Assembly: GCA_035380285.1 (NCBI GenBank)
Contig: DAOSXE010000020.1
Span: forward strand, 1 to 57,819
Origin: a bacterium
GTDB lineage: Bacteria > Auribacterota > Erginobacteria > Erginobacterales > DAOSXE01
Length of the DNA stretch: 57,819 bases
Direction: 5' to 3'
Each line of letters starts with the position of its first letter. Within the stretch, counting starts at the first letter, position 1. Positions 1-19,427 of this stretch are shown here, one piece after another. A model generated the notes under the pieces. That model worked only from the letters and a program-made list of their open reading frames with translations, was not told the origin of the DNA and did no database searches. Position numbers and translations under genes: made by a program.

Positions 1-1089
1 GTCGATGGTGCGCATGATGTCGTCCCGGGTTTCGGAGGGCGCTCCGATCATGAAATAGCCCAGGGTCTCGATCCCCAGTTTCTTGGTGGCGGCGAACGTT
101 TCCCGGACCTGGTCGAGGGTGATCCCTTTGTTGAGGACGGCCAGGATCTTTTCGGTCCCGGCCTCCACCCCGTAATGGATGCGTTCGCAGTGGGCCCGGC
201 GCAGGCGTTCCAGCATCGGGGCGTCGACGCAATCCACCCGGGCCCGGATGTCCCAACCGATATCGAGGCGCCGGCGGATGATTTCGTCGCAGACCTCCAT
301 TACCCGGGGCTTGCTCACGGTGAAGGTGTCGTCGTAGACCAGGAACTCGTGGATGCCCAACTCCAGGCAGGCCTCCATCTCGTCGACCACGTTGACGGCG
401 CTGCGGGCCCGGAACCGCTTTCCCAGATGGGGTCTGCCGCAGAACGAGCAGCGGAAAGGGCATCCCCGGCTGGTGATCATGGTCGTGATCGGCTGGCGCT
501 TGGCCATGACCGAGCTGTAGTTGCGCCAGGGGGTGAGGGTCCGGTCGGGGAAGGGAAGGGCGTCCAGGTCGGCGACCAGTTCCGCGGGGGGGTTGCGGTG
601 AAAACCGTATTCGTCCGTCCAGGCCAGGCCCGGCACGCTCTCCCGCGCGCCCTTCCCGTCCAGGCAGTCGGCCAGGGCGGCGAAGCCGGCTTCTCCCTCC
701 CCGGCCAGGACGTAATCGACGCCGTCCAGCCGTGCCGTCTCTTCCGGATAGATGAAGACATGCCCCCCGCCCACGACCACCGGGACCCCCGGGCACGCCT
801 CCTTGACGGTGCGGACGGTCTTGACCACGTCCAGGAGGGTGAAGGTCATGGCGGTGATGCCGACCAGGCCGGCCTTCGCTTCCCGGATCCTGGCCTCCAG
901 TTCCGGATAGGTCAGCTCCTCCACCTGGGCGTCGATCACCTCCACTTCATGCCCGGTTTTCTCCTTGAGGTAACCGCCGATATAGAGCAGCCCCAGCGGG
1001 GGGTTGAAGCCCCGCTCCTCGTCGATCAGGGCCGGGTTGTTCCCGGTGAGTTCGTTTTCCCGGGGCGGATTGATCAGAAGGACTTTCAC
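1..1089 (-). CDS. B12-binding radical SAM protein (3' end cut by the window edge)
   Basis: The reverse-strand translation has an N-terminal B12-binding-like domain (VKVLLINPP...GLLYIGGYL) followed by a CxxxCxxC radical SAM core (SRGCPFRCSFCG). The GTG start at 1089 overlaps the stop of the downstream GT2 by 4 nt (GTGA). The listed + ORF 175..1095 is its antisense shadow. Confidence 0.7.
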   Translation of the reverse strand, partial: MKVLLINPPRENELTGNNPALIDEERGFNPPLGLLYIGGYLKEKTGHEVEVIDAQVEELTYPELEARIREAKAGLVGITAMTFTLLDVVKTVRTVKEACPGVPVVVGGGHVFIYPEETARLDGVDYVLAGEGEAGFAALADCLDGKGARESVPGLAWTDEYGFHRNPPAELVADLDALPFPDRTLTPWRNYSSVMAKRQPITTMITSRGCPFRCSFCGRPHLGKRFRARSAVNVVDEMEACLELGIHEFLVYDDTFTVSKPRVMEVCDEIIRRRLDIGWDIRARVDCVDAPMLERLRRAHCERIHYGVEAGTEKILAVLNKGITLDQVRETFAATKKLGIETLGYFMIGAPSETRDDIMRTID

Positions 1090-1946
1090 CGCTGAATCCG
1101 CTTATCGATCAGGTCGGCGATCAGGGCCAGGCCCATCATCTGCAGCCCCGACATGATCACCACGATGACGGTTATATCCATGACCCGTCCCAACACGAAT
1201 TTGCTGTAGACGAGGATGCCCGCGGCCAAGAGGAAGAGGAGGACGCCGGCGGGGACGAAAATCTTGAGGGGGTGGAAGTACAGGCTGGTTCTGAGGATGA
1301 GGTTGACCAGATTTCCCGTGTCCTGGACAGGGCGGAACTTGGAGCGTCCTTCCCGGTGGTGGTAGTTGATGGGAAGATAGGCGACGCGGTATCCGTTGCT
1401 GAGAAAAGCCAGGGTGATGGTGGTGGTGAAGGAGAATCCGTCCGGGAAGATGTTGAAGAAGCGCAGGGCCGCTTCGCGGTTGAAGACCCGCAGGCCCGAG
1501 TTCAAGTCCGGAATCTTCATCCCCGCCAGATAATTGGCCATGGCCCGCAGCAGCGCTTTCGGTATCCGGCGGTGGCAGGGGATCGCCACCCGATCCCCGG
1601 TCCGCGACCCCACCACCATGTCGTGGTCGCGGGCGCTCTCGAGGAGAGCGGGGATGGCGTCGATGGGGTAGGTGCCGTCGGCGTCGGTGATGAGGACGGT
1701 GTCGAACTTCGCCGCCCGGATGCCGTCCTTGAGCGAGGCCCCGTAACCCCGGTTGACGGGGTGCCGGATGAGCAAAGCCGCTTCCGGCGCCACCGCGGCC
1801 GCGGTCCCGTCGGTGGAGGCGTCGTCGACGACGATGACCTCGAAGTCCACCCCGCTGTCGGCCATGACCGACCGCACCTGCCCGACCACCGGGGCGATGC
1901 CCGATTCCTCGTTGTAAGCCGGTATGACTATCGATACCCCGTTCAT
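1086..1946 (-). CDS. Family 2 glycosyltransferase, polyprenol-phosphate sugar synthase type (DPM1/GtrB/ArnC-like)
   Basis: It carries the GT2 motifs VSIVIPAYNEE, VVDDASTDGT and DADG, plus a C-terminal transmembrane helix as in GtrB/ArnC/Ppm1. Confidence 0.75.
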   Translation of the reverse strand: MNGVSIVIPAYNEESGIAPVVGQVRSVMADSGVDFEVIVVDDASTDGTAAAVAPEAALLIRHPVNRGYGASLKDGIRAAKFDTVLITDADGTYPIDAIPALLESARDHDMVVGSRTGDRVAIPCHRRIPKALLRAMANYLAGMKIPDLNSGLRVFNREAALRFFNIFPDGFSFTTTITLAFLSNGYRVAYLPINYHHREGRSKFRPVQDTGNLVNLILRTSLYFHPLKIFVPAGVLLFLLAAGILVYSKFVLGRVMDITVIVVIMSGLQMMGLALIADLIDKRIQR

Positions 1947-1967: not shown

Positions 1968-4196
1968 CTATATGCCCGGTTCGGGGGCAGTGTCAATCGC
2001 CCCCCCGGACTCCGGCAGGAAATAGTAGCCGACGATCTCGTCCCCCCACCGGTCCCTGATCTCTCCGAGCGCGCCGCGCGCCCCCGTGGATTCGACCGCC
2101 GCCTCCAGCGCCTTCCGGTTGGGGGGGTGGACCACCACCGCTCCCGGTTCGCTTCCCCGGGAGGCGCGCACCAGGGAGTCGGCGAGTCCGGCCGTCCCCG
2201 CGAAGTAGGCGCAGAGGGGATGGGCGGCGATTTCGTGGTAGTCGTAGTACCGGTGGATGTCGGTGTGATAACGGTAGAGCCTCCCCGTTTCCGGGTAGCA
2301 GAGAAAATCGATCGCCCGCGCCGGCCCCAGGGTGGTGTAGAAGCTTTCGAAGTGAACCTCGGTCCGCCGCCCCCGGCGGAAAAGGTCGGCAACGAAAAGC
2401 CCGACCGCGTTCGAATCCGGTTCCTTCATGGCGAAGTAGCGGGAGACGTTCAGGACCGTCAGGGGCAGGAGGTAGAGGACGACGGCCGCCGCCCCCAGGG
2501 AGATTCCGACCCGGCGCGTTTTTCCGGGGAAAAGTCCGAGGAACCTCGACCCCAGGGCGGTGATGAAGACCGCCGCCGCCAGGCAGATCAGGGGGATGCC
2601 GAGAATGAGGTGCCGCGGCGGCGAACCGATGGGTTTGACCAGGGCCATGAAAGGAACGGTTGCGGGCGCGATCCAGAGAACGAGAAACAGGTAGCGGGTG
2701 CGTTTCCAGTGGTACAGCGCCCAGGCCAGGCCCAGAACGGCGGGCAGGAAGACGGCCCGGTTGACCAGGCCGCCCTTGGGGGGATAGGTGAACGAGCCCG
2801 ACCAGCGGTCGACGCAGAGGTTGAGGTAGAGGTCCTCAAGGTTGGTCAGGAGCTGGCCCGGCACCAGTTCCCAGCGCATGGACATATCCGCCCGCGATTC
2901 GCTGCCGATGAAGGGGTAGATGCTTCCCCCCTTGGAGCTTTTGTAGGCGGTGTCGGCGATCATCCCCAGGCTCCCGGCCTGGATGGAGAAAAAAACCGCG
3001 AAGACGGCCAGAAAGACGAGGAAGCCGGGCAGGTTGCGGCGGAAAAAACCGCGCCGCAGCGCGGCCCGCGCCACCCACAGCGCCAGAAGCATGGGGAGCA
3101 CGATTTTGACCGGGAGGTAGCAGAAACCGTAGAAACTGAGGACGAACCCCAGGAAGAGATAGGGGAGGATCCGCTGGGAGCGGATGGCGGTGAAGAAGAG
3201 GTTGAAGACGAGCAGGGCGAAGGCGATGCTCATGCTCCCGAACATGCCGGCTCTGAAGATGGTCATATGCCAGGGGGAGATGGCGAAGAGCGCGGCGGCC
3301 AGGAGTCCGGCGCCGGGGGAGAAGAGCCGGGCACCCAACAGGTAGAGCAGGGCGATGGCGGCCATCCCCCAGAGGACGGAGATGCTTCGGAACGCGACCA
3401 GATGAACCCCGAAGAGGCGCATCATCTCGGCGGCGGGAACGGTAAAAAGCGCCGAACTGCAGGAATCCGCCCCGTAGGAGCGGGGAAAATAGGTCCAGAT
3501 GAAATCGGTGGTGTCGGGGTCTCCTTCCAGAAGCTGGACGCCGACCAGGGCGTTGGTGGCTTCGAATTCGTCGAAACGGGGCTGGCTGTCGATCCGGTAG
3601 AAGCCGGCGGCGGTGGCGGCCAGCAGCAGAGCGCCCAGTCCGGCGGCGTACATCCCCCCCCGTTTCCCGCGCCCCGGCTCCGCGGGGCCCGGGAACAGCC
3701 CGGCGACCAGGACCGCTCCCGCCGCCAGCAGGTAGCGGATGAACCCCTCCCGGCCCAGGCCGTCGCTCAGTCGGTTTTCCGCACTCAGGGCCAGCGCCAG
3801 GGCCAGGGCCAGGAAGAGGAAGCCCCCGGCGCGCCGCCGCCGCGCCGCCGCCGCCGCGACCGCGGCCAGAAACAGCGCCGCGCCGCCGATCCCGAACAGG
3901 ACTTCGCCGCGGTTTTTCATGAACAGGACGGCGGCGCCGGCGCCGCGGTCGATGGTTTCGAAAACGGGTCGCAGCGCCGGCAGCGAGCCTTCGGGACCGA
4001 AAGCCGTCTTCCGGGCGGCCGTCAGCACCCCGGCGAAAAACAGGGCGTACAGAACCGCCGCCGCCGTCCCCGCGGCCAGGGCCCGCCGGTTCGGCGGTAC
4101 CCGCTCCCGGCGCAGGAACAGACCTCCGGCGACCAGGACCAGAGCCAGGGCCGCCATCCGAAAGACGGGAGCGAGGATGAAGCTCCCGGAACTCAC
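1968..4196 (-). CDS. GT-C fold membrane glycosyltransferase, PMT_2/ArnT-like (GT39/GT83 family), with an extra N-terminal multi-TM extension
   Basis: A DEFE loop motif is followed by the PMT_2-like pattern (MRLFGVHLVAFRSISVLWG...AISPWH), with many TM helices and a long soluble C-terminus. The first ~190 codons of the listed ORF are low-complexity. The chosen start is the GTG at 4196, which overlaps the upstream stop (GTGA); the ATG at 4157 is an alternative. Confidence 0.6.
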   Translation of the reverse strand: MSSGSFILAPVFRMAALALVLVAGGLFLRRERVPPNRRALAAGTAAAVLYALFFAGVLTAARKTAFGPEGSLPALRPVFETIDRGAGAAVLFMKNRGEVLFGIGGAALFLAAVAAAAARRRRAGGFLFLALALALALSAENRLSDGLGREGFIRYLLAAGAVLVAGLFPGPAEPGRGKRGGMYAAGLGALLLAATAAGFYRIDSQPRFDEFEATNALVGVQLLEGDPDTTDFIWTYFPRSYGADSCSSALFTVPAAEMMRLFGVHLVAFRSISVLWGMAAIALLYLLGARLFSPGAGLLAAALFAISPWHMTIFRAGMFGSMSIAFALLVFNLFFTAIRSQRILPYLFLGFVLSFYGFCYLPVKIVLPMLLALWVARAALRRGFFRRNLPGFLVFLAVFAVFFSIQAGSLGMIADTAYKSSKGGSIYPFIGSESRADMSMRWELVPGQLLTNLEDLYLNLCVDRWSGSFTYPPKGGLVNRAVFLPAVLGLAWALYHWKRTRYLFLVLWIAPATVPFMALVKPIGSPPRHLILGIPLICLAAAVFITALGSRFLGLFPGKTRRVGISLGAAAVVLYLLPLTVLNVSRYFAMKEPDSNAVGLFVADLFRRGRRTEVHFESFYTTLGPARAIDFLCYPETGRLYRYHTDIHRYYDYHEIAAHPLCAYFAGTAGLADSLVRASRGSEPGAVVVHPPNRKALEAAVESTGARGALGEIRDRWGDEIVGYYFLPESGGAIDTAPEPGI

Positions 4197-6298
4197 GGCT
4201 CTTCCGGCACCGGCCGGTCGAAGATCGCCGTCCGGGCGATCCGTCTTCCGAACCGGTCCCTGGGTTCGTCGATCCGGGCTCCGGGCAGTTCCCGCGCCAG
4301 TTCCGGCACCCGGCGGGACGCCGGCTGCTGGTCGGCGACTACCAGCGCCGCCGGCCTCCCCCCGGCGGACAGCTCCCGGGCGGTCCGTTCGACCAGGTCG
4401 GGGCGGATGTAGCGGTATCCGTAGGCCGGTTTCCCGGAAGTATCGAGGAGGAGGAAGTTGATGGTCTTGCGGCTGAGATCGTTGATGGGGACCACGACCA
4501 GCTCGTATTCGCGCGGAAAGGAGAGAAGATAATCGTCGAACGAGCGTTCCTCGTCCCAGCGACCCGCCGGTTGGTTGCTGTCGAAAAAGACGTGACAGTT
4601 GAAGACTCCGATTCCGGCCAGTCCCGCCGCCGTCAGGACGGCCGCCGCCGCCCCGCCGGTTTTCCCCAGCGCCGCCCGGGCCAGGACGGAAAAGCGGGAA
4701 AGCGGGATCGCGGCCAGGCAGTAGATGAAGGGCCATGAAACCATCATTCGTCTGACCATCACCGGGGGCCGGGAGAGCAGGTTGGGGACGAGGAAGGCCG
4801 CCAGGAAGAAGAGCAGAAGCCGGTAGTTCAATTTTCGGATACGGGCCAGGGCGGTGCCGATTCCGAGGATGAAAAGGACCGAAACGCCCGGGTTGAAAAA
4901 GAGGTTTCCCCGCGGCCAGGGGTCGTAGTTGAAGTTGCGGGAAAAGAAGAAATCTTCTCCCAGCTTGAGCAGGTTTTCCCAGACCAGGGGAAGCCCCCGG
5001 AGGTAGTCGGCCTGGGGGGTGTAGAGATGGCCCTGGGTCCGGTGCCAGACCGATTCGTAGCCGGCGAAACTGGGGGCCATGACCCGGAAGACGGGGATGT
5101 TCAACACGGCCCCGATCGCGACGACGGCGAGGACCCCGGCGGCCAGGCCGGGCAGGTTTCCCCGCAGAAACCCCCGGTGGAAGAACAGGAAAAAGAGAAT
5201 GAGAACCGCCGCCAGCAGCACCGGGTATTTGGCCGGTGAATAAAAATAACCGGCGAAGGAGCAGGCGGCCCCCAGCAGGATCCAGGAGGTGACGTCGCGC
5301 CGCAGCAGGGCCCTCAGCAGCAGGAACACGATAAGAAGGCTGACCGTCTGGGTCGAACAGAGCAGGAGCCCGATCCGGCTGTAGTTGATGTGGAGGGGGG
5401 AAACGGCCATGAGCAAGGCGGAAATCAGGGCCAGCCGTTTTCCGAAGAGGATGCCGACGATGCCGTAGGTGAGGAGGACGGACAGGGTGCCGTAGACGAC
5501 CGGAACCAGCTTCAGGGAGGCCAGGGAAACCCCGAGGAGACGAAAGGAGAGGGCTACGCAGTAGGTGTAGACGGGGGAGAGGTTCAGATGCCCCAGCCCC
5601 CGCCAGATGGTGGAGGTCCAGAGGGAGGGAGCGTGTTGGCCGTTGAGGACGTTGAGCGCCTGCCAGGCATAGTCGGACTCGTAGTGGTCGAAGCGGACGG
5701 AAACCGCCCCCAGCAGGTGGACCCTGAGGGCGAAGGCGAGCAGGACCGTCAGGGCCGCCATCGCCGCAGCCGGCACGCCTTCAGCCCAGGGCCGTCCCCC
5801 GGATCGAAGCGGGGACGGGGAAGCCGCGGCCGAGGCGAAGGCGTAGACGCCTCCCGCCACCAGGAACAGGGGTCCCCAGAAGAAGTTCCAGGCGCTCAGG
5901 AAGACGCCGCCGGCCAGGGCGAAGGACAAGCCCAGAACCAGGAGGATGAAGCCGGCGCCCCCCTTCCTCCGGGCCACCCCCGCCCAGAGGATCAGTCCCG
6001 CCGCCAGGGCGGCCGCCGCGCGCCGGAGCAGGGGCAGGTGGGGAAAAAGCCAGTCGTCCAGCGCCCGCCCCGCCTTCACCGCGGGGTCCACGATTTTTCC
6101 GGTGAGGGCGGAGGTGCCTCCGGGGAGGACGGCCGCCGCCCAACACCCCCATCCGATCGCGGCCGCGGTCGCCAGGACCAGGAGGGTCTTCCACCGGGTC
6201 CGGCGGTAGGCCGGCGCCGTGAAGAACCCCTTGACCGCCAGCCCGGCCGCTATTCCGCCGGCGCCCAGAACGAGCAGGATGATCCGGGACGGTTGCAT
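4193..6298 (-). CDS. GT-C fold membrane glycosyltransferase, PMT_2/ArnT-like (GT39 family)
   Basis: The HYESDYAWQALNV loop is followed by FRLLGVSLASLKLVPVVYGTLSVLLTYGI..AVSPLH, typical of PMT_2/ArnT. It has at least 10 TM helices and a soluble C-terminal domain. Confidence 0.65.
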   Translation of the reverse strand: MQPSRIILLVLGAGGIAAGLAVKGFFTAPAYRRTRWKTLLVLATAAAIGWGCWAAAVLPGGTSALTGKIVDPAVKAGRALDDWLFPHLPLLRRAAAALAAGLILWAGVARRKGGAGFILLVLGLSFALAGGVFLSAWNFFWGPLFLVAGGVYAFASAAASPSPLRSGGRPWAEGVPAAAMAALTVLLAFALRVHLLGAVSVRFDHYESDYAWQALNVLNGQHAPSLWTSTIWRGLGHLNLSPVYTYCVALSFRLLGVSLASLKLVPVVYGTLSVLLTYGIVGILFGKRLALISALLMAVSPLHINYSRIGLLLCSTQTVSLLIVFLLLRALLRRDVTSWILLGAACSFAGYFYSPAKYPVLLAAVLILFFLFFHRGFLRGNLPGLAAGVLAVVAIGAVLNIPVFRVMAPSFAGYESVWHRTQGHLYTPQADYLRGLPLVWENLLKLGEDFFFSRNFNYDPWPRGNLFFNPGVSVLFILGIGTALARIRKLNYRLLLFFLAAFLVPNLLSRPPVMVRRMMVSWPFIYCLAAIPLSRFSVLARAALGKTGGAAAAVLTAAGLAGIGVFNCHVFFDSNQPAGRWDEERSFDDYLLSFPREYELVVVPINDLSRKTINFLLLDTSGKPAYGYRYIRPDLVERTARELSAGGRPAALVVADQQPASRRVPELARELPGARIDEPRDRFGRRIARTAIFDRPVPEEP

Positions 6299-6307: not shown

Positions 6308-6991
6308 TCAGTCCGAGAAGGATATCTTCATGTTGGTGTAGGCCGGTCCCGCGTCCTTGGCTTCCATCCGGTTGATTTCATGGAAGAAGCGGTCGTCGAA
6401 GACCGGATCCTCCCCCGGCCATCCCCCCGAACCGCGGTAGACGTGGGTGTTGCGCCCTCCGGGCCAGGTGCAGCCTACGAAAATGACGGCGTCTTCGCTG
6501 CTGAACGAAAATTCGCTCCAATCCCCGGTTTCCTTCGCGGTCAGGAATTCGGAACGGGCGATCTCCCGGTCGGGTTTGTTGTCGCCGTTGCGGTCGGCGA
6601 AGGCCACGATGTGAAATCCGCCGTCTTCTCCCTCCAGGGCGTGGGCGATGCGGACGGTCACGGTGCTCCCGGTTTTCTTTTCGGGCTTGACCCGCCAGAC
6701 CCAGAGGACATAGTTGCCCTGGGTGTTATGGATGTTGCCGGTCATCAGGCCTTTTTCGGCCATCTCCCGGGGCATCGTCGGCGGTTTGCGGGGTCGGGGC
6801 GCGGCCCGGTCGGGGGCTTCCCGGGAGTCGCGGCCGGCGGAGGAGAAAAGGCTCTTGACCCAGGCCGCCGCTCCCCCGGCCGGTCCCCGGGGGAAGAAGG
6901 GCCGAACGGTATCGTAGGCTACCGCCAGAAAGAGCGCCACCCCGGCGACTATCAAGACGTTGCCCCACAATCTGCGGCTGAACAGTTTCAT
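6308..6991 (-). CDS. Membrane-anchored secreted protein consisting of the conserved domain of unknown function shared with three GT-C enzymes of this locus
   Basis: An N-terminal signal anchor is followed by a ~115-aa domain (GGFHIVAFADRNGDNKPD...GDWSEFSF...IFVGCTW...YTNMKISF). The same domain sits at the C-termini of the proteins at 7101..9158, 9155..11374 and 20867..23542. Confidence 0.6.
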   Translation of the reverse strand: MKLFSRRLWGNVLIVAGVALFLAVAYDTVRPFFPRGPAGGAAAWVKSLFSSAGRDSREAPDRAAPRPRKPPTMPREMAEKGLMTGNIHNTQGNYVLWVWRVKPEKKTGSTVTVRIAHALEGEDGGFHIVAFADRNGDNKPDREIARSEFLTAKETGDWSEFSFSSEDAVIFVGCTWPGGRNTHVYRGSGGWPGEDPVFDDRFFHEINRMEAKDAGPAYTNMKISFSD

Positions 6992-7046
6992 AGCGATCCC
7001 CGTTTGGTTGGTTCCCGGTCAAAAAGAATACCACCCCCGCTGGGGG

Positions 7047-7058
7047 AGCACTATAATA
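7047..7058 (+). promoter_or_regulatory. Candidate -10 element (cactataatacg) in the divergent intergenic region between the two glycosylation operons
   Basis: A perfect TATAAT lies about 45 nt upstream of the ATG at 7101. No good -35 was found. A small CCCCCGCTGGGGG palindrome sits immediately upstream. Confidence 0.25.
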
Positions 7059-7100: not shown

Positions 7101-9158
7101 ATGCCGCGTACCCTGATCGAGAAACGTCTGGAACTGGTCCTCTTCCTCGTTCTTCTGTTCAGTTTCGCTTATTTTTACCAGGGAGGGGGGGCCAATCAGA
7201 ACGCCCGCCTCGACCAGATCCGTTCCATCGTCGAGTACGGCCAGCTCAACCTCAAGGGGACGGCCGGGAGCCACGACATCGTCCAGGTGGGGCGCAGGAC
7301 TTATCCCAACAAGGCTCCGGGGATAGTGTTGGCGGGCACGCTCCCCTTCCTGGCGGCCGCGTGGCTCAAGGGGCCCGCCCTGCTCCTGGTGGAGGAGAGG
7401 TATCTCTACCTCTTCGTCAGCTACCTGGTCACCGTCCTGACGGTGGGAGCGGTCTGCGCCGCGGGGGGAGTGGTCTTCTTCCGGCTTCTGGGGCTGTTCG
7501 ACGGGCGCCCCGCCCCCCGGCTTCTGGCAGTCGCCGCCCTCTTCGTCGGCACTCCGGCTTTCGCTTATTCCACCATGCTCTACGGCCATATGGCGGGATC
7601 GGTCTGGGCGCTGCTTTCCTTCTACCTCCTCTATAAGTACTCCTGCGTTCTGCCTCACGCCCCCCGTGCCCGGTTTTTTATTTTCCTCTCGGGGCTCTCC
7701 GGCGGTTGGGCGGTGGTGACGGAATATCCCACCATCGTCATCGTCGCGGTTCTATCCCTGTACTGCCTGTTCCGCTCCGCCCGGCTGCGCACCGGGCGCT
7801 GGTGGGGGAACGCGGGAGCGTTCCTGCTCGGGGCCCTCTTCCCGGCTCTGGTGCTGCTCGGGTACAACCGGGCGGTCTTCGGCCGCTGGCTGTACGTGGC
7901 CTACTTCGACAAGCGCGCCGCCGCCCACTCCGCCTATAAGCGGGGCCCGGTGTTGGGGTTTTCCTTCCAACTGCGCACGTTCCTCAACGTGGTCTGGCAG
8001 ACCTCCTTCGGCGCCTATCGGGGTTTTTTCCACCTCTCCCCGTTCCTGGTTCTGATTTTCCCCGGCACCTGGTACCTGGCCCGCCGCCGGGGCGGGGGCG
8101 GCCTGGCCCTGGCGATCTGGTTCATGGCTCTGGCTTATTTCGCCCTCAATTCGGTCTACCCCTACTGGTACGGAGGCAAGGCTCTCGGCCCCCGGCACGC
8201 CATGGAGATGCTCCCCTGGCTGGTGCTGCTGGCGTTTTTCTGTATCCGGCGCCTTCCGCTTCTCTCGGGGGCACTGGTCGCGGTTTCCGCGGCCTTGATG
8301 CTGGTCGCGGTTTCGGTCCGGCCGGAGGAGTACGTGACCCGGCCTTTCCGGGACCTCTACTTCGAGTGTTTCCAGGACGGCGCCCTCGCCATCCGGGGGG
8401 AGCCCAGTTTCGTCAACGCCGGCGAGTTCAATTCGTTCAATGTGGGCCAGCTTCTGGGGCTGCCGGGCCGTTCCAGCCTCGTTCCCCTGCTGGCCGTCTG
8501 GTTCGCGGGAGGACTGTTCATGAGTATAGTTTCGCTGCGTCACCGCGCCGACGGCGCCGCTTCGGTCTCGTCGGCCGCGGTCAGGATCCTGGGAGCGGTG
8601 GTCGTGCTCCTCCTCGTTCTCGAGGGAGTCACGCTCTATCGGCTCATGCGGCTGGAGGAGGAGGTCGCCCTGCTCACCGACACCGGGGAATACCGGGTTC
8701 CCCCCGGTGAAATTCCGGCCGCCCAGGTCAGGGAGAAAGCTTCTCCCGGCCACCGTCTCCAGGTCTGGGAAGTGCTCAAGCCCTACGCCCCCGGCGACCT
8801 GGTCACGGTCAAGGCCGAACACGCCGCCGGCGGGGATAAAGGCGGGTTCTCCATCATCGCTTTCGCCGACCGCAACGGCGACGGCCGCCCCGACATCGAG
8901 ATCAGCCGTTCCCCCTTCCTCGCCGGCCGCCGGGCCGGAGACTGGAGCCAATGGAGCTTCCGGGCGCCGACGGGAAAGATATTCGTCGGCTACACCTGGC
9001 GCGAAGGCGCCCGGGTGTACTTCGAGCGCACCGGATGGAAGGATGCGAGTTTCTCCCCGGAGATGTATTACTCCTCGGGAGAACTCCCCACGCTCTCCAC
9101 CAGCCCCCGGGCCAGTAACCTGGCGGTGGAGATCGGCGCCGGCGGGGCGGCGCGGTGA
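7101..9158 (+). CDS. GT-C fold multi-TM glycosyltransferase with the locus-specific C-terminal domain
   Basis: It has about 12 TM helices. The C-terminal ~135 aa (GGFSIIAFADRNGDGRPD...GDWSQWSF...IFVGYTW...ASNLAVEIG) match the shared domain. The stop overlaps the next start (GTGA). Confidence 0.6.
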   Translation: MPRTLIEKRLELVLFLVLLFSFAYFYQGGGANQNARLDQIRSIVEYGQLNLKGTAGSHDIVQVGRRTYPNKAPGIVLAGTLPFLAAAWLKGPALLLVEERYLYLFVSYLVTVLTVGAVCAAGGVVFFRLLGLFDGRPAPRLLAVAALFVGTPAFAYSTMLYGHMAGSVWALLSFYLLYKYSCVLPHAPRARFFIFLSGLSGGWAVVTEYPTIVIVAVLSLYCLFRSARLRTGRWWGNAGAFLLGALFPALVLLGYNRAVFGRWLYVAYFDKRAAAHSAYKRGPVLGFSFQLRTFLNVVWQTSFGAYRGFFHLSPFLVLIFPGTWYLARRRGGGGLALAIWFMALAYFALNSVYPYWYGGKALGPRHAMEMLPWLVLLAFFCIRRLPLLSGALVAVSAALMLVAVSVRPEEYVTRPFRDLYFECFQDGALAIRGEPSFVNAGEFNSFNVGQLLGLPGRSSLVPLLAVWFAGGLFMSIVSLRHRADGAASVSSAAVRILGAVVVLLLVLEGVTLYRLMRLEEEVALLTDTGEYRVPPGEIPAAQVREKASPGHRLQVWEVLKPYAPGDLVTVKAEHAAGGDKGGFSIIAFADRNGDGRPDIEISRSPFLAGRRAGDWSQWSFRAPTGKIFVGYTWREGARVYFERTGWKDASFSPEMYYSSGELPTLSTSPRASNLAVEIGAGGAAR

Positions 9159-11374
9159 GTCTCGGTTCCCGGACCCGCTTCTGGGTCCTCCTGATTTTTC
9201 TCGGCAACCTGGGCCTGCGCCTGGCCCTGGTCTCCTGGAATTACGCCACCTACACCGACAGCATCGACTACATGACCGCCCTCGACCGGGTGAGGGGGAC
9301 CATCATCCTCCCCGGTTATCCCTTCGCCGTCGACCTGCTCGAGCTTCTCACCGGCGATCCCCAACTGGCCGGGCGCCTGGTTTCGATCGTCTTCGCTTCC
9401 CTGTGCGTTTTTCCGCTCTACGGTCTGGGCCGGATCGTCTGCGGCCGGCGCGCCGGGCTTTTGACCGTGCTCTTCTACAGCGTTTCTCCGCTGCTTCTGC
9501 GCTGGTCGCTGCGGGTGTTCCCCCACGGAATGTACGCTTTCCTGGTGCTCGCCTTCCTCTACGGGATCTTCCGTTCCCTGGAGAGCGGTTCGGTCTGGTG
9601 GCTGGCGGCCGGCGTATTCTGCGGCGGCCTGGGCGTCGTAACCTATCCCACCGGCCTCATCCTGGTCCCCGTCGCCCTGGCGGCCGTGGCCGGCCACCTG
9701 TTCCGGACCGCGGCCCGGGAACGTTCCGGGCCGTACTGGTGGGCGGTTTTCCTGGGGGGCTGGGCGGCGCTCGGGGCCGCGTTCGCCGCTTTTCCGGCCT
9801 GGCGTTCGGCGCCCGAGGCCGCGCTGGCGTTTCTGCTGGGGATCTTTCCGTTGGGGCTCCCCGGTCCCGCCGCGCTCTGGCCGATTCTGCTGCTGGGCGC
9901 CGGCTGGGGGACGGCGCTTGTGGTCGTCTCCTACCTGCTGCCCGCCCGCGGCGGGCGCCCCGGCCGTTCCCTGAGGCGCCCCCTGGAGCTGCTGGCCCTG
10001 GCCGCCGCCTTCTCCGGCTACGCTTTCCTCCATGTCTGGCAGCGCTATCTTTCCATGAGCACCTGGTACCAGGAAGGGATGAAGAACTCCATGCGTTCGC
10101 TGTCCGGGCGCTGGGAGCAATGGCTGACGTATTATCTTCAGTCCTATCCGTACGTTCTCGTCTACCCCGTCGCCGCCTTGGCGTTGGTGGGCCTGGTCCT
10201 CGTCGCCCGGCGCGCCCGGAGAAGCGCGGTCGTCGCCGCCTGGCTCGTCTTCTTCATCTATTTTCTGGCCGGGGTTTTCTACACCCTGGTGGCGAACAAA
10301 TGGTGGACTCCCCGCTACCAGTACACCCTGGTCGCCGTTACCCTTCCTTTGGCCGGGTGCGGCCTTTCGGTCTTTTTCGATTCCCCCCGGCGCCTCCTGC
10401 GCGGCCTGGGTTGGGGGCTTCTCCTCCTTTCCCTGGGCGCCTCCGCGGTTTTCACGGCTTTCGTTCTCTACTGGTCTCGCGACAGTTTCGCCGACATCCG
10501 GCGCAGCGCCGACTATATCCGCGAGCACCTTTCCGGCCGCCGCGTCTACTCCAGCGAACTCCGCAAGGTGGGATGGTGGGCCCGGACCCCCGTACGGGGC
10601 TATACTTCCGGATCCCGGAGCTCGGTCCGTCCCGGCGATTATGTCCTCCTGGTCGGCTGGCACACCAACCTTGCCACCGAACTGCGCTACCTTTCCTCCC
10701 GGTATCCCCTCCGGGAAGTCCACCGCGAGACCGTAACCATCAGGGGGCTGCTCGCGGACGATATCGTCGACTGGGCCGGCCGGCGCCTCTCGCGCCGGGC
10801 CAACTCCCCGGTCTGCTGGGAAGAGAGGTTCCGCCCGCAGACCCTGGAGAGCCTGATCGTGGAAGTGCTCGATCCGGAAACGGGCGCGGGGCCCGACCAG
10901 GGGCGCCTCCTGCTCCCTGCCCCCGGCGACCTCCCGGTGGGAGGGGTCGAGCACGCCGACTACTTCGATTCCGGTTTCTGGGAGGTGTCCCCTCCGCCGG
11001 CCGCCGGAAGCGCGGTCGTGGTGGAGATGGCCCATGCCCGCCCCGGGGCCGAGGGGTCCTTCCGGATGGCGGCTTACGCCGACGAAGACGGAGACGGACT
11101 TCCCGACCGTCTCCTGGCCGAGTCCCCGCTGCTGGAGTCGGAACGAGCGGGCGAATGGTCCCGCTGGGAATTCACCTCCCCCGGGGGAAGAATTTTCGTG
11201 GGAAGCCGCTGGAGCCTGGGCAATTGGATCTACTACGAACGCGGCCGCTGGATCGACCAGCCTCTCGGGGAAGTGATGTTCTATTCCCGGGGAGGGGAAC
11301 CCCGCAACAAGGCCAACCCCATCGTCACCAACCTCAAGGTCTCCTTCGCCGCCGCCACGGCGCCGGCCCCCTGA
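9155..11374 (+). CDS. GT-C fold membrane glycosyltransferase, PMT_2/ArnT-like, with the locus-specific C-terminal domain
   Basis: The N-terminal loop NYATYTDSIDYMTALDRV is followed by FPLYGLGRIVCG, as in PMT_2. It has multiple TM helices. The C-terminal domain reads FRMAAYADEDGDGLPD...GEWSRWEF...IFVGSRW...VTNLKVSF. Confidence 0.65.
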   Translation: MSLGSRTRFWVLLIFLGNLGLRLALVSWNYATYTDSIDYMTALDRVRGTIILPGYPFAVDLLELLTGDPQLAGRLVSIVFASLCVFPLYGLGRIVCGRRAGLLTVLFYSVSPLLLRWSLRVFPHGMYAFLVLAFLYGIFRSLESGSVWWLAAGVFCGGLGVVTYPTGLILVPVALAAVAGHLFRTAARERSGPYWWAVFLGGWAALGAAFAAFPAWRSAPEAALAFLLGIFPLGLPGPAALWPILLLGAGWGTALVVVSYLLPARGGRPGRSLRRPLELLALAAAFSGYAFLHVWQRYLSMSTWYQEGMKNSMRSLSGRWEQWLTYYLQSYPYVLVYPVAALALVGLVLVARRARRSAVVAAWLVFFIYFLAGVFYTLVANKWWTPRYQYTLVAVTLPLAGCGLSVFFDSPRRLLRGLGWGLLLLSLGASAVFTAFVLYWSRDSFADIRRSADYIREHLSGRRVYSSELRKVGWWARTPVRGYTSGSRSSVRPGDYVLLVGWHTNLATELRYLSSRYPLREVHRETVTIRGLLADDIVDWAGRRLSRRANSPVCWEERFRPQTLESLIVEVLDPETGAGPDQGRLLLPAPGDLPVGGVEHADYFDSGFWEVSPPPAAGSAVVVEMAHARPGAEGSFRMAAYADEDGDGLPDRLLAESPLLESERAGEWSRWEFTSPGGRIFVGSRWSLGNWIYYERGRWIDQPLGEVMFYSRGGEPRNKANPIVTNLKVSFAAATAPAP

Positions 11375-12530: not shown

Positions 12531-12531
12531 G

Positions 12532-13015: not shown

Positions 13016-13975
13016 ATGATCGAAGGCAAACGGATACTGCTCACCGGCGGCGCCGGTTTTATCGGGACCAACCTCTGCCGGGCCCTGGCCGACGCCAACC
13101 GGCTGGTGGTCTTCGACAACCAGCACCGCGACGCCATCCATTTCACCGCGCTGACCAGTCATCCCAACGTCACCTTCATCAAGGGCGACGTCCTCGACCC
13201 GGCTTCGGTCCGGCGGGCCATGGCCGGTTGTTCCCAGGTGATACATCTGGCCGCCATCGCCGGGATCGACACCGTCAACCGCCGCCCGACCGTGACCATG
13301 AACGTGAATATGCAGGGAACCCGCAACGTCCTGGAGGCGGCGGTGGAGGAGGGGGTGGAACGGCTGATCGATTTTTCCACCAGCGAAGTCTACGGTTCCT
13401 TCGTTTACAACGCCGACGAGGGCGATTCCACCATCCACGGCCGGGTGGGGGTGCTGCGCTGGATCTACGCCGTGAGCAAACTCGCCGCCGAGCATATGAC
13501 CCACTGTTACCACGAGGAGTACGGGCTCCCCACCGTCACCATCCGTCCCTTCAACGTCTACGGCCCCTACCAGGTGGGGGAGGGGGCGATCCAGCGGTTT
13601 TGCCTGGCCGCGCTCGCGGGCGAGCCTCTCTGGATCAACGGCGACGGCTCCCAGATCCGGGCGTGGTGCTACATCGACGACTTCGTCCGCGGGGTCCTGC
13701 TCTGTCTGGAAAAACCCGCGGCGCTGGGCGAGGTCTTCAACATCGGCAACCACACCGCGGCCGTGACCATCCTCGATCTGGCCGAGCGTATCATCCGCCT
13801 GGCCGGGTCCTCCTCGACGGTGAACCACCGCGACGAACTGGGAGCGGACGTGGCCCTGCGCATTCCCAGCACCCGCAAGGCCCGGGAACTGCTGGGGTTC
13901 GTTCCCGAGATCAAGCTGGACGAGGGTCTTCGGCGCACCATCGACTGGTACCGAGAGTACGCCCCCAGGTTGTGA
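13016..13975 (+). CDS. NAD-dependent epimerase/dehydratase (extended SDR; GalE/WbpP-like)
   Basis: It has the GGAGFIG Rossmann motif and the YAVSK catalytic YxxxK. Confidence 0.7.
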   Translation: MIEGKRILLTGGAGFIGTNLCRALADANRLVVFDNQHRDAIHFTALTSHPNVTFIKGDVLDPASVRRAMAGCSQVIHLAAIAGIDTVNRRPTVTMNVNMQGTRNVLEAAVEEGVERLIDFSTSEVYGSFVYNADEGDSTIHGRVGVLRWIYAVSKLAAEHMTHCYHEEYGLPTVTIRPFNVYGPYQVGEGAIQRFCLAALAGEPLWINGDGSQIRAWCYIDDFVRGVLLCLEKPAALGEVFNIGNHTAAVTILDLAERIIRLAGSSSTVNHRDELGADVALRIPSTRKARELLGFVPEIKLDEGLRRTIDWYREYAPRL

Positions 13976-13991
13976 AGCCGGAGACGCAGGG

Positions 13992-14933
13992 ATGAGAGTT
14001 CTGATCGCGGGGGCCAACGGCTTTGTCGGGCGCAATCTCCTGCTCGGGCTCGGCGCCGGCCGGGACCTCTACGGCGTCGATCTCGGCCCCGGACTGGAGG
14101 AGTTCGTTCGGCGACGGGGTCTGGCCGGGGTCAGGTGCGCCGCCTGCGACCTGGCCGATCGGGAAGCGGTCGCCGCCCTGGCCCGGGACTGGGGTGACGA
14201 CTTCGACGCGGTCGTCTACCTGGCGGGGAACGGAGACCCCGCCCGCTCCGTGGCCGACCCCGCCTTCGATCTGCGCAGCGCCCCCCTGAGCCTGGTCACC
14301 TTCCTTTCGGCATTCCGGGCCCGGCGGTTCGTTTATTTCTCCTCGGGCGCGGTGTACGACCGGATCCGGGGCGCGGTTTCGCCCCGGACCCCGGTCGAGC
14401 CCGTGCTCCCCTATGCGGTGGGGAAATACGCCTGCGAACGCTATATCCGCTTTTTTCGGGAACGGGAACGGATCGGAAGCTACGTCGTTCTGCGGTTCTT
14501 CGGCGCGTACGGCCCCTGGGAACCCGCCCGCAAGATCTACACCCGGCTCGTCCGCCGGTTCGCCCTGGAGCGCCGTCCCGACTTCGAAATCCGAGGGGAC
14601 GGCAGCAACCTCATCGACGCCATGTACGTCGAGGACGCCGTCCGGGCCGTGGGCCTGGTCCTCGATTCCGGGGTTGCCGATCGGACCGTGGATTTCTGCG
14701 TCGGGAGTCCGCTGACCCTCAGGGCCCTGGTCGAAACGGCGGCCCGCGAGTTCGGGCTCGAACCCGACCTCCGCTGCCGGGGAACCGTTCCCGAGTACAT
14801 CGAGTTCCGTCCGTCGCCCGAGGAGATGCGCGAACTTTTCGGTTTCAGGCCGGAGATCCCCCTGAACGAGGGGCTGCGCCGGTTGGCGGAACACCTGCGC
14901 GCGGCAACGTTTGGAGAAGAAAGCCATGTCTGA
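13992..14933 (+). CDS. NAD-dependent epimerase/dehydratase family protein
   Basis: GANGFVG and YAVGK are present. It is 313 aa. Confidence 0.65.
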   Translation: MRVLIAGANGFVGRNLLLGLGAGRDLYGVDLGPGLEEFVRRRGLAGVRCAACDLADREAVAALARDWGDDFDAVVYLAGNGDPARSVADPAFDLRSAPLSLVTFLSAFRARRFVYFSSGAVYDRIRGAVSPRTPVEPVLPYAVGKYACERYIRFFRERERIGSYVVLRFFGAYGPWEPARKIYTRLVRRFALERRPDFEIRGDGSNLIDAMYVEDAVRAVGLVLDSGVADRTVDFCVGSPLTLRALVETAAREFGLEPDLRCRGTVPEYIEFRPSPEEMRELFGFRPEIPLNEGLRRLAEHLRAATFGEESHV

Positions 14934-15873
14934 GAGGAAACGAAACGTTCTCGTCACCGGCGGGGCCGGATATGTCGGATCGGTGATGGTCGGCGAGTTC
15001 CTGCGCCGGGGCTTCCGGGTGACCGTACTCGACGACTTCCGCTTCAGCCGCACTTCGCTCCTGCACCTGGTGGGGGAACCGGGGTTGGAGGTGGTTCGAG
15101 GCGACGTCCGGGACCGGTCCCTGCTCAAGCCCCTGGTGGCGGCGGCGGACGTCATCGTCCCCCTCGCCGCGGTGGTCGGCGCCCCCGCCTGCTCCCTGCA
15201 TCCGGGGGAGGCCCGGAGCGTCAACACCGGGGCCGTTCGGCTCCTCAACGATCTGCGCAGCCGTTCCCAGCCGGTGCTTTTCCCGGTGACCAACAGCGGC
15301 TACGGGATCGGGGAGAAGGGGGTCTACTGCGACGAGAACACGCCGCTGCGGCCCATCTCCCTGTACGGGAAAACCAAGGTCGAAGCCGAGAAGCTGCTGA
15401 TGGACAAGGGGGGGGTCGTCGCTTTCCGGCTGGCCACCGCCTTCGGGGTTTCGCCCCGGATGCGGGTGGATCTGCTCGTCAACGATTTCACCTACCGGGC
15501 GGTAAAGGACCGGTGCGTGGTCCTTTTCGAGGAGCACTTCAAGCGCAACTATATCCACGTTCGGGATATCGCCCGCGCGTTCCTCTTCGGGCTCGAACGT
15601 TTCGGAACCATGAAGGACCAGGCGTATAACGTCGGTCTCAGCAACGCCAATCTTTCCAAGCTCGAGCTCTGCCGGGTGATCAAAAAGCACGTCCCCGAAT
15701 TGGTGATCATCACGTCCGACATCGGCCGCGACCCCGACCGCCGCGATTACATCGTCAGCAACGCCAAGATCGAGGCCGCCGGATTCAAGCCCCGCTATTC
15801 CCTCGACTACGGGATCCGCACCCTGATCAAAGCCTATGGCTTCATCAAGAACTCGATCTACGACAACCAGTGA
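14926..15873 (+). CDS. NAD-dependent epimerase/dehydratase family protein
   Basis: VTGGAGYVGS and YGKTK are present. The ATG at 14926 is preceded by GGAGAA and overlaps the upstream stop by 8 nt. The listed ORF start at 14911 is an alternative. Confidence 0.65.
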   Translation: MSERKRNVLVTGGAGYVGSVMVGEFLRRGFRVTVLDDFRFSRTSLLHLVGEPGLEVVRGDVRDRSLLKPLVAAADVIVPLAAVVGAPACSLHPGEARSVNTGAVRLLNDLRSRSQPVLFPVTNSGYGIGEKGVYCDENTPLRPISLYGKTKVEAEKLLMDKGGVVAFRLATAFGVSPRMRVDLLVNDFTYRAVKDRCVVLFEEHFKRNYIHVRDIARAFLFGLERFGTMKDQAYNVGLSNANLSKLELCRVIKKHVPELVIITSDIGRDPDRRDYIVSNAKIEAAGFKPRYSLDYGIRTLIKAYGFIKNSIYDNQ

Positions 15874-16832
15874 AAACCGCCGCCGATAGTTCCGCTCCCA
15901 TCCTGGTAACCGGAGCTTCCGGCTTCCTCGGCCGGCACATCGTCCCCGTTCTCAGGGAGCGGTACGGCGCCGACCGGGTGGTGGGCGTTTCCTCCTCGGA
16001 TTACGATCTGACCGAGCAGGACCAGGTCCGGGCCATGTACCGCGACATCGCCCCGGGACGGGTCGTAGCTCTGGCCGGCTACGTGGGCGGCATCGGCGCC
16101 AACCGCGACTACCCCGCCGACTTCTTCTACCGCAATATCGTCATGAACACCCTGACCATCCATGAAGGTTGGAGGGCGGGCGCGGAGAAACTCCTGGCGG
16201 TGATGGGGGGGTGCAGCTATTCGGCGACCGCCCCGTCCCCCCTCCGCGAGGAACAGATCTGGGACGGGTTCCCGGCGGCGGAGAGCGCCCCGTATTCCAT
16301 GGCCAAGAAGATGGGCCTGCTCCAGGCGGCCGCCTACCGCGCCCAGTACGGGTTCAACGCCGTCGTCCTCGTTCCCGGGAACGTCTACGGCGAATACGAC
16401 AACTTCGAGCTGGCCAACTCCCACGTCGTCCCGGCCATGATCAGGAAATTTCACGAGGCCGCCCTCCGCCGGGAACCGCGGGTCGTCCTCTGGGGCAGCG
16501 GATCCCCCACCCGGGACTTCGTCTACGCCGCCGACGTCGCCGGGCTCTTTCCCTGGTTCCTCGACCGTTACGACAGCTCCGAACCGGTGAACCTCTCCAC
16601 CGGGGTCTCCACCTCGATCCGGGAACTGGCGGTCCTGACCGCCGAACTGACCGGGTACCGGGGGGAGATCGTCTGGGACACCTCCCAGCCGGACGGGAAA
16701 AAGTACAAGATCTTCGCGGCCGACCGGCTCCACGGCCTGGGCCTTTCCTGTCCCACTCCGCTGCGGGAAGGCCTGGAGAAGACGGTGCGTTGGTTCGCCG
16801 AACACTACGGACGGGGGGACGTCCGGCTGTGA
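15870..16832 (+). CDS. fcl: GDP-L-fucose synthase (GDP-4-keto-6-deoxy-D-mannose 3,5-epimerase/4-reductase)
   Basis: GASGFLG, YSMAKK and the Fcl-type NVYGEYDNF..SHVVPAMIRKFHEA signature are present. The GTG start overlaps the upstream stop. Confidence 0.65.
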   Translation: MKTAADSSAPILVTGASGFLGRHIVPVLRERYGADRVVGVSSSDYDLTEQDQVRAMYRDIAPGRVVALAGYVGGIGANRDYPADFFYRNIVMNTLTIHEGWRAGAEKLLAVMGGCSYSATAPSPLREEQIWDGFPAAESAPYSMAKKMGLLQAAAYRAQYGFNAVVLVPGNVYGEYDNFELANSHVVPAMIRKFHEAALRREPRVVLWGSGSPTRDFVYAADVAGLFPWFLDRYDSSEPVNLSTGVSTSIRELAVLTAELTGYRGEIVWDTSQPDGKKYKIFAADRLHGLGLSCPTPLREGLEKTVRWFAEHYGRGDVRL

Positions 16833-17611
16833 AGGCCGTGGTCCTGGGGGGTAAGGGGTTCGTGGGCTCGGCCCTGGTCCGGGAAGCCGAGCGCCGGGAA
16901 ATCGAGTGCCTGGCCGTCGACCTCGACAATTACCGGGAGTGCCGGGGGACGGAGTGCGACCTCTTCATCAACGCCGCCGGCAACTCCCGCAAGTACCTGG
17001 CCGCCCGCGAGCCCGCCGAGGATTTCCGTATTTCCCTGGGAGGGCTGATCTCGTCTTTCGGGGATTTCCGGTTTTCCCATTACGTCTACATCTCCAGCGT
17101 CGACGTCTACCCCGACCCTTCCTCCCCCGCCCGAACCCGCGAGGAAGCCGTCATCGACGTCGCCTCCGTCTCCAACTACGGGCTCCATAAATACCTGGGA
17201 GAGCAGATGGTCAGGCACTACGCTTCCTCCTGGCTGATCCTGCGGCTGGGGGGGATCCTGGGGCCCGGCCTGAAGAAGAACCCGGTCTACGACCTCCTCC
17301 ATGGGATCCCGCTCCGGGTCTCCGAAGAGTCCCGCTACCAGTACCTCGACGCCGGTTTTTTCTCCGGTGCCGTCTTCGCCCTGGCGGCGGCCGGCCGATG
17401 GGGGGAGGTCTACAACGCCTGCGGACGGGGGACGGTGGCCCTGCGCGAAGTGCGCCGGATGCTGGATGCCCCCCCGGAGCCGGCACCGGCCTCCGTCCCC
17501 GTGGAGCACTACCGGATCAACAACGACAAACTGGGCGAGTTCACGGAAATACCGGCCACTGCCGACACCGTCCGGGATTTCATCGCCGCCAGGGAAGCGA
17601 GGCAGCCATGA
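16829..17611 (+). CDS. Short NAD(P)-dependent sugar epimerase/reductase (RmlD-like SDR)
   Basis: GGKGFVGSAL and YGLHK are present. The GTG at 16829 overlaps the fcl stop (GTGA). The N-terminal part of listed ORF 16169..17611 is out-of-frame readthrough of fcl. Confidence 0.5.
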   Translation: MKAVVLGGKGFVGSALVREAERREIECLAVDLDNYRECRGTECDLFINAAGNSRKYLAAREPAEDFRISLGGLISSFGDFRFSHYVYISSVDVYPDPSSPARTREEAVIDVASVSNYGLHKYLGEQMVRHYASSWLILRLGGILGPGLKKNPVYDLLHGIPLRVSEESRYQYLDAGFFSGAVFALAAAGRWGEVYNACGRGTVALREVRRMLDAPPEPAPASVPVEHYRINNDKLGEFTEIPATADTVRDFIAAREARQP

Positions 17612-18624
17612 TCATTTCCCAGACCCCGGTCAGGGTGAGTTTTTTCGGGGGAGGCACCGACTTCCCCGAGTATTTCGAGGAGCACCCCGCCGCGGTGCTC
17701 TCCACCACCATCGACAAATACGGCTACCTGACGGTCAGCTACCTCAGCGGTTTTTTCGACTATCGGATCAAGGCCTCGTATTCGCGGGCGGAGACCGTGG
17801 CCACGGTCGACGAACTCAAGCATCCGGCGATCAAGGCCTGCCTGCGGTTTCTGGGGATCGAGGAGAACATCGAGATCAACTACTTTTCCGACCTCCCGGC
17901 CCGGACCGGCCTGGGAACGTCATCGTCCTTCGTGGTCGGCCTCCTCAACGCGCTCTACGCCTACCAGGGCCGGCGGGTTTCGGCCGATCAACTGGCCCGG
18001 GAAGCCGTCTACGTCGAACGGGAACTGGTGGGGGAAAACGTGGGGCTCCAGGATCAGTACGCCGCCGCCTACGGAGGGCTCAACTACATCGGGTTCCACC
18101 CGGGACGGGTCGTCAAGATCGAGCCCATCATCTGCCCCCCGGAGACGATCGAGCTTCTCGACCGCAATCTCATGCTTTTCTACACCGGTATCCAGCGCTA
18201 TTCCGAAACCATCCAGCAGGAACACGTGGCCAGGATCGGATCCAACCTCGGCCACCTGGCCGACCTGGCGGCGCTGGCGCCGGCCGGAAGGGACCTGCTC
18301 GAGAGCCGCCGGCCCGACCTCAGGGAGTTCGGGCGCCTGCTCCACGAAAGCTGGCTTCTGAAAAAGTCCATGGGAAGCGGCGTCTCCATCCCCGAGATCG
18401 ACCGGATGTACGAGGCGGCCCGGAGCGCCGGCGCCTTGGGGGGAAAACTGCTGGGCGCCGGCGGCGGCGGCTTCCTCCTCCTCTACGTCGAGGAGCCCTG
18501 CCGCCCGGCGGTGAGAAAGGCCCTGGCCTCCAAGCTCGAAGTGACTTTCAATTTCGAGAGCAACGGGACCCACATCGTTTTTTACGACCCCCAGCGCCTG
18601 GCGCCTCCGCCGGACCCGGTCTGA
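17608..18624 (+). CDS. GHMP family sugar kinase (HddA/fucokinase-like)
   Basis: GLGTSSSFVVGLLNAL is the GHMP ATP-binding motif. The ATG overlaps the upstream stop (ATGA). Confidence 0.6.
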   Translation: MIISQTPVRVSFFGGGTDFPEYFEEHPAAVLSTTIDKYGYLTVSYLSGFFDYRIKASYSRAETVATVDELKHPAIKACLRFLGIEENIEINYFSDLPARTGLGTSSSFVVGLLNALYAYQGRRVSADQLAREAVYVERELVGENVGLQDQYAAAYGGLNYIGFHPGRVVKIEPIICPPETIELLDRNLMLFYTGIQRYSETIQQEHVARIGSNLGHLADLAALAPAGRDLLESRRPDLREFGRLLHESWLLKKSMGSGVSIPEIDRMYEAARSAGALGGKLLGAGGGGFLLLYVEEPCRPAVRKALASKLEVTFNFESNGTHIVFYDPQRLAPPPDPV

Positions 18625-18692
18625 CCCCGTCGCCTCCGCGGCGCAGATTAAAGGTGCAAAACGCCGCGGGCTTGTGTGATAATTCCCGACCC

Positions 18693-19421: not shown

Positions 19422-19427
19422 GTTTTT

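Follow-up and report, generated by a model that had tools for sequence, protein, structure and literature searches.

A predicted beta-sandwich domain of an unnamed family, shared by three GT-C glycosyltransferases and a membrane-tethered protein in an Auribacterota surface-glycan locus

The stretch of DNA analyzed here, which we call the window, spans 57,819 nt with a GC content of about 67% and contains a surface-glycan locus with five GT-C enzymes. Gene boundaries were fixed with third-position GC frame plots; long shadow open reading frames are numerous in this GC-rich DNA. The minus strand carries an operon in the order P1, GA, GB, GT2, and B12-binding radical SAM. P1 (6308..6991), for which the sequence-only reading gave no strand, translates into a protein of 227 aa. 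Nine nucleotides separate its stop codon from the start of GA (4193..6298), a 701-aa PMT_2 GT-C (Pfam E value of 2e-13) with no match to the domain that is the subject of this report. The next gene, GB (1968..4196), encodes a PMT_2 GT-C of about 742 aa (E value of 2e-8) that also lacks the domain and is linked to GA with an hhalign probability of 100%. It is followed by a GT2 glycosyltransferase with a hydrophobic C terminus (1086..1946; Pfam Glycos_transf_2, E value of 6e-25) and, as the last visible gene of the operon, by that of a B12-binding radical SAM enzyme, which runs off the edge of the window (1..1089; Pfam B12-binding and Radical_SAM). The GT2 protein is likely a polyprenyl-phosphate-sugar synthase that makes the lipid-linked donor, a role assigned because of a known three-component scheme (PMC11127046). 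A B12-binding radical SAM gene beside a GT2 gene, a PMT_2 GT-C gene, or both is a recurrent arrangement: all three are present in the window (1-4196, minus strand), and the association is found twice in the related locus L001 (282-3953 and 13088-17633) and again in locus L006 (17082-20699). In L001 and L006, the GT-C following the radical SAM gene carries a PA14 domain.

A block of genes on the plus strand diverges from P1. It starts with G1 (7101..9158) and G2 (9155..11374), continues with a deaminase, CrcB, and DUF190, and ends with G3 (20867..23542). The CrcB fluoride channel and the DUF190 gene thus sit inside the glycan locus (12147-12885, plus strand); Rfam recognizes no riboswitch in the locus, and none of the fluoride type attains the gathering score. 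The interval between G2 and G3 is occupied by sugar-precursor genes identified with Pfam and the frame plot (13016..20870, plus strand), namely, five NAD epimerase/dehydratases, a GHMP kinase, a second GT2, and an FAD oxidoreductase. The five epimerase/dehydratase paralogues stand in a row (13016-17611, plus strand), an equal run is present in L006 (54-4872), and such a run hints at a sugar donor that is unusual and carries many modifications. We identified no gene for a flippase in the window. Genes for Fur, rubrerythrin, and ferritin come after G3 (23616-25599); farther on, three nitroreductase-family paralogues lie within 11 kb (29839-30447, 33545-34087 on the minus strand, and 39773-40672), with a flavodiiron-like protein nearby (38643-39917). 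Together, these genes look like the oxidative-stress toolkit of an anaerobe. The remaining window holds ordinary housekeeping genes and one tRNA-Met.

Four copies of a domain of about 135 aa are encoded in this locus, one making up most of P1 and the others ending G1, G2, and G3. When the last 135 to 140 aa of the four proteins were compared by blastp, pairwise identities were 37 to 46% across 114 to 138 residues, with E values between 5.6e-28 and 2.7e-36 (in summary, 1e-26 to 1e-36). This similarity is far above chance. A hidden Markov model (HMM) of the four copies, applied to all six-frame open reading frames of the window, retrieved just these four, with E values of 3e-67 to 6e-69, and no fifth copy at an E value of ≤10. 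The HMM envelopes place the free-standing copy, the P1-type one, at 6311-6739 on the minus strand (223.5 bits) and the C-terminal copies of G1, G2, and G3 at 8724-9140 (158.7 bits), 10940-11353 (162.4 bits), and 23105-23527 (171.3 bits) on the plus strand. The sequence-only reading, which had proposed a domain occurring four times in one locus, is therefore borne out by both the pairwise and the profile comparisons, and the alignment of the four copies is significant when properly scored. The open reading frames it reported exist as given, and every one of the conserved blocks it quoted (GGF..A.AD..GD..PD, GxWS, FVG..W, and TN..V) was found; its domain starts, however, were set some 20 to 30 nt too far downstream.

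At the DNA level, the copies are much more diverged than recent repeats would be. Their mean column identity is 68%, and the sole identical stretch between the P1 and G1 copies is 21 nt long, on opposite strands. These two values, together with the old orthologous clades described below, rule out recent duplication or repeat-mediated rearrangement as the source of the copies, and judging from the sequences, they are old paralogues.

Searches of family databases left the domain without a name, as the sequence-only reading had anticipated. Neither Pfam-A 2025 nor NCBIfam 20.0 gave a match at the curated threshold over the domain in the four window proteins; none of 113 relatives that were scanned has a Pfam or NCBIfam family over it; and a profile search of PDB sequences with the four-copy profile returned no family, the best E value being 0.11. 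We built an AlphaFold model of the P1 copy from an alignment of 23 sequences. The model (pLDDT, 93.5; pTM, 0.89) is all-beta, with about 11 strands, and residues 545 to 679 in the model of G1 are likewise all-beta strands. Foldseek found no match for the domain at an E value of ≤0.001 among all PDB chains. Its weak matches are largely to sugar-binding modules; PHR domains and phage capsid and baseplate proteins are also among the neighbors. The predicted fold class is a beta-sandwich, that is, a lectin- or CBM-like jelly roll, to which no known family is close. Two features that characterize CBMs are present, a discrete beta-sandwich or jelly-roll fold (in the predicted model) and attachment to a carbohydrate-active enzyme (at the C terminus of three GT-Cs), whereas no characterized CBM family claims the domain by sequence or close structural similarity. 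Similarity to the C-terminal domains of Emb or AftD was not detected at the level of sequence or close structure either. By analogy with known systems considered below, the domain would most likely represent a new family in an already known role, the family being novel and the role not.

Among 143 near-full-length instances of the domain, the residues that are invariant or nearly so are W98, H116, G120, G123, F125, D132, D136, G137, P139, D140, S146, W157, F162, G172, and N219 (P1 numbering). Several of them belong to an acidic block with the consensus A-D-t-D-g-D-G-x-P-D, which in the model forms a loop linking strands 41-47 and 57-61. Across the same 143 instances, D132 is conserved in 99%, [DN]134 in 80%, [DN]136 in 98%, G137 in 83%, P139 in 99%, and D140 in 99%. 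The strict pattern Dx[DN]xDGxxD is found in 80 of the 143 (56%), and a relaxed form is found in 112. This calcium-type motif is strict in G1 and G2, while position 6 is Asn in P1 and His in G3. The loop thus holds the linear Dx[DN]xDG motif as well as a further acidic ligand, and it probably binds calcium, as its sequence pattern suggests.

The proposal that the block resembles a calcium- or FG-GAP-like loop agrees with the conservation of Dx[DN]xDG across the family. This motif is used by many unrelated folds (PMC3123361). FG-GAP_3 is the only Pfam family to match over the domain (G1 residues 574 to 599; E value of 0.094, below the threshold), and this weak match arises because the acidic block fits the calcium motif. 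Membership in FG-GAP/VCBS (PF13517) was rejected, given a score of 13.8 bits against a cutoff of 26.9, a match confined to a single 26-residue stretch, and the predicted sandwich fold. Integrin/FG-GAP/VCBS repeats and EF-hand-like loops place D-x-[DN]-x-D-G-x-P-D between two strands, as the window domain does; yet its scaffold is a predicted beta-sandwich, unlike a beta-propeller blade or an EF-hand.

P1 consists of a transmembrane (TM) anchor (aa 8 to 30; about 6902-6970), a variable Pro-rich tether (aa ~37 to 92), and the domain (aa 94 to 227). K2, R6, and R7 precede its single hydrophobic segment, which places the N terminus inside and the domain outside. In 23 P1 orthologues, consensus conservation is 0.64 in the TM region, 0.39 in the linker, and 0.69 in the domain; the TM helix and a YDxVRPFFP motif are about as conserved as the domain, while the tether differs in both length and sequence. 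Conservation of the helix and motif fits a specific intramembrane contact. The AxA-like site of P1 is not conserved, most orthologues having no AxA cleavage site, which indicates that the helix stays in place to hold the protein in the membrane and is not removed as a signal would be. The protein had been described as secreted; its domain is indeed extracytoplasmic, but given the conserved N-terminal helix and the lack of AxA, membrane tethering fits better. The periplasmic location suggested for the domain holds in the sense that it is extracytoplasmic, since P1 has an N-in signal anchor and, in the relatives that were fully read, the domain comes after a signal peptide or after a TM segment that follows a cytoplasmic kinase. 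Upstream of the P1 ATG is a Shine-Dalgarno-like GGGGA. The leader (7023-7082, minus strand) contains a promoter-like TTGAGT-18-TATTAT; next, some 30 nt ahead of the start codon, comes a GC-rich hairpin and T-run (7050-7023), which could be an attenuator or a chance occurrence.

The three enzymes that carry the domain are polytopic membrane proteins with the GT-C fold, although they differ in how readily this can be recognized. G2 (739 aa) is a PMT_2-family member (Pfam E value of 7e-14; 52.7 bits against a cutoff of 26.1). G3 (891 aa) has no Pfam match in its own sequence; its family is linked to those of G2, GA, and GB with hhalign probabilities of 86 to 98%, and its orthologues P0050 (51% identity) and P0055 (38% identity) exceed the PMT_2 threshold. 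An open reading frame list would stretch G3 upstream to a TTG at 20384 (20384-20866, plus strand), overlapping the FAD oxidoreductase gene; the frame plot favors the ATG at 20867 as the true start. G1 (685 aa) is the outlier: its NCBIfam match to LA_3751/LA_3752 is below the threshold, and its hhalign scores, weak with few sequences, reach 80 to 86% with an alignment of 92 sequences. A sequence search of the PDB with G1, G2, and G3 gave no match, and fold comparison was therefore used for G1. Pfam, hhalign, the PMT_2 scores of orthologues, and fold comparison all support the earlier assignment of the carriers to GT-C. In G1, the acidic residue D59 is invariant in 92 homologues and located after the first helix.

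By blastp, the terminal domain is all that G1, G2, and G3 have in common, and no similarity is detected among their membrane parts. Of the G1 homologues, the shorter ones (about 90 proteins of ~500 aa) are without the domain and some 30 of ~690 aa have it, which identifies the domain as an add-on.

Comparison with related loci shows that the domain exists in both split and fused versions. Of 13 free-standing copies, 12 are encoded directly upstream of a polytopic membrane protein that is on the same strand and lacks the domain, the gap between the two genes being mostly from -4 to about 20 nt. These 12 neighbors have 9 to 15 predicted helices; 10 are GA-type, 1 is GB-type, and 1 belongs to a family that we call X. 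The X neighbor (10786-12192 in locus L003) has homologues with 47 to 57% identity that carry a C-terminal P1-type domain (P0037, P0046, and P0049), and a P1-type domain is also present in P0051, a PMT_2 enzyme. Members of the X family are polytopic proteins of ~470 aa that either neighbor a free-standing domain protein or have the domain as part of the same chain; neither the L003 protein nor the N-terminal part of P0037 gave a Pfam match or an hhalign link to GT-C. The sequence-only reading regarded the free-standing protein as a partner of the enzymes that could be a substrate, carrier, or regulator. On the pattern of fused and adjacent genes, a trans-acting accessory module for the adjacent domain-less GT-C is more likely than a substrate or regulator.

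To what extent is the domain restricted to such loci? We searched 1.84 billion cluster representatives exhaustively with the HMM and found it in 462 at an E value of ≤1e-3, 181 at ≤1e-10, and 32 at ≤1e-30. The best 147 of the 462 comprise 46 short free-standing-type proteins or fragments, 11 polytopic fusions, 4 tandem arrangements, and 86 proteins with other N-terminal regions; the domain is C-terminal almost throughout. Most of the 86 are secreted proteins of ~400 aa with no assigned function, a class in which about two-thirds have an N-terminal hydrophobic segment. Among the 113 relatives scanned for families, single members carry a Ser/Thr kinase, PASTA, transglutaminase, FGE-sulfatase, C-type lectin, FecR, or STN domain. 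Named sources of P1-type copies are metagenome-assembled genomes (MAGs) of the PVC group or Candidatus Auribacterota, and the wider relatives extend, besides Auribacterota, to Bacteroidota and Planctomycetota (Phycisphaerae). A word-indexed search with a diverse profile returned 18 proteins, and the named source proteins are all annotated as hypothetical; a paper on Auribacterota genomes (PMC9324843) makes no mention of glycosyltransferases or the envelope. The domain is therefore not the locus-specific recognition module that had been proposed, since it has 462 representatives, relatives are known from several phyla, and just 11 of the best 147 are polytopic, GT-C-like fusions. Nor does it always occur together with PMT_2, which is present in 5 of the 113 relatives.

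Within genomes of Candidatus Auribacterota and the PVC group, the gene arrangement is conserved. In a layout shared by seven genomes (the window, L005, L006, L008, L013, L014, and L015), G2 and G1 lie on one strand, and P1 followed by GA runs away from them on the other; L005 has five domain copies, two free-standing and three fused. In a neighbor-joining tree, the copies separate into four orthologous clades (P1-, G1-, G2-, and G3-type), each spanning genomes; each paralogue has thus stayed with its enzyme since before the lineages split. Two sequences that resemble natural fusions, P0001 and P0031 (PK636_05385 and PK636_05235, deposited from another MAG), were discarded as assembly chimeras from a fragmentary MAG. 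One of the chimeras joins the P1 N terminus to the C-terminal domain of G1 at a junction that is exactly FADRNGD, and the other joins a radical SAM fragment to the P1 C terminus. The 21-nt identity between P1 and G1 (within 6538-6643 on the minus strand and 8820-8925 on the plus strand) probably caused the misassembly.

What might the domain do on these enzymes? We favor, with moderate confidence, an accessory module that binds the acceptor glycan, acting in cis on G1, G2, and G3 and in trans via P1. The domain would hold the growing glycan, or a glycan-bearing acceptor, near the active site of a periplasm-facing GT-C and keep it close while lipid-linked sugars are added. G1, G2, and G3 would each bring the module at their own C terminus, whereas P1 would supply it by means of its TM helix and flexible Pro-rich tether to GA, encoded directly downstream, and perhaps to GB too. 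Glycan binding by the domain, calcium binding, and a physical complex between P1 and GA are what we infer.

Several characterized systems offer precedents. The C-terminal CBM of EmbC binds the arabinan acceptor and is required for chain extension (PMC3044687), and AftD also carries CBMs (PMC11127046); EmbA, EmbB, EmbC, and AftD all have, as G1 to G3 are predicted to have, a beta-sandwich lectin-like module on the extracytoplasmic C terminus of a polytopic GT-C. The GT136 enzyme ORF12 of Citrobacter youngae likewise ends in a beta-rich domain, a CBM that binds the acceptor O-polysaccharide and yet is dispensable (PMC11127046). This domain is described as immunoglobulin-like. The ORF12 locus follows a three-component scheme of a GT2-type polyprenyl-phosphate-sugar synthase, a GT-C, and epimerases, as in the window (PMC11127046). 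PA14 and the CBM4/6/22/35 jelly rolls belong to the same general fold class and are used as substrate-binding appendages. In related Auribacterota loci, a GT-C belonging to this gene cluster has PA14 in the place corresponding to that of the window domain, which we count as a sign of interchangeability.

Other observations weigh against acceptor binding. P1 and G3 depart from the strict calcium motif, and the GT136 precedent shows that such a module can be dispensable. Most family members are not glycosyltransferases, and across the family, the ligand need not be a glycan.

An alternative that we consider unlikely is that the domain serves assembly, the copies contacting each other or a common partner and so gathering at least five GT-Cs on the periplasmic side, with P1 as an adaptor. 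Each copy of the locus either is part of a GT-C or has a GT-C gene beside its own; tandem double copies exist in the relatives P0032, P0033, and P0045; the PHR domains and phage capsid and baseplate proteins found as structural neighbors work by protein contacts; the conservation of the P1 TM helix hints at a complex; and Emb enzymes are reported to act as dimers. Yet paralogues that are just 37 to 46% identical and fall into separate clades fit diverged specificities better than self-interaction, and in the wider family, many secreted proteins that are unrelated have a single copy. An anchoring or sensing function, in which the domain would bind peptidoglycan, an outer-layer component, or Ca2+ and thereby position or regulate the enzymes, appears very improbable to us. 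The conserved calcium-type loop is compatible with it, as are the single relatives in which it is combined with domains usual in envelope sensing (Ser/Thr kinase, PASTA, FecR, and STN) and a very weak PDB profile match to the SH3b cell-wall-targeting domains of lysostaphin and ALE-1 (E values of 0.1 to 0.75). This SH3b match is not significant, however, and the jelly roll predicted for the domain is larger; no gene of the locus points to signaling, and structural calcium is common in CBMs.

The remaining alternative makes P1 the acceptor substrate or carrier, glycosylated on its tether or domain by its PMT_2-type neighbors, while the fused copies would be self-glycosylated or would act as regulators that mimic the product. 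PMT_2 is a family of protein O-mannosyltransferases, P1 is extracytoplasmic with a Pro-rich, partly Ser/Thr-containing linker beside the membrane, and S146 and N219 are invariant in the domain. The linker is nonetheless the least conserved part of P1 in both sequence and length (0.39), Ser and Thr are few in it, and N219 lies outside any N-x-S/T sequon. Fusion of a substrate to three different enzymes would be unusual, the fused and split pairs point to a subunit, and the many sugar-nucleotide enzymes of the locus are typical of polysaccharide synthesis; we hold little belief in a substrate role on these grounds. Bolder versions of these ideas can be put forward, in which the domain is a docking element uniting at least five GT-Cs and P1 into a periplasmic machine for an Auribacterota surface polymer or P1 is a tethered protein primer. 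We regard both as improbable, but either, if true, would be a new organizing principle for GT-C pathways.

GT-C enzymes build many envelope glycans, and acceptor recognition is known for few of them, chiefly Emb, AftD, and GT136. The unnamed family described here, with its 462 cluster representatives, has been reused on three unrelated GT-Cs and on a separately encoded, tethered copy. If the domain binds the acceptor glycan, it would constitute a new CBM-like family and provide a natural split/fused pair for acceptor presentation in trans, as well as a marker, at the sequence level, by which to recognize a conserved surface-glycan locus rich in GT-Cs in an uncultivated phylum of the PVC group. 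If it binds no glycan, it would still deserve an entry in the databases, being a widespread module of the envelope whose acidic loop probably binds calcium.
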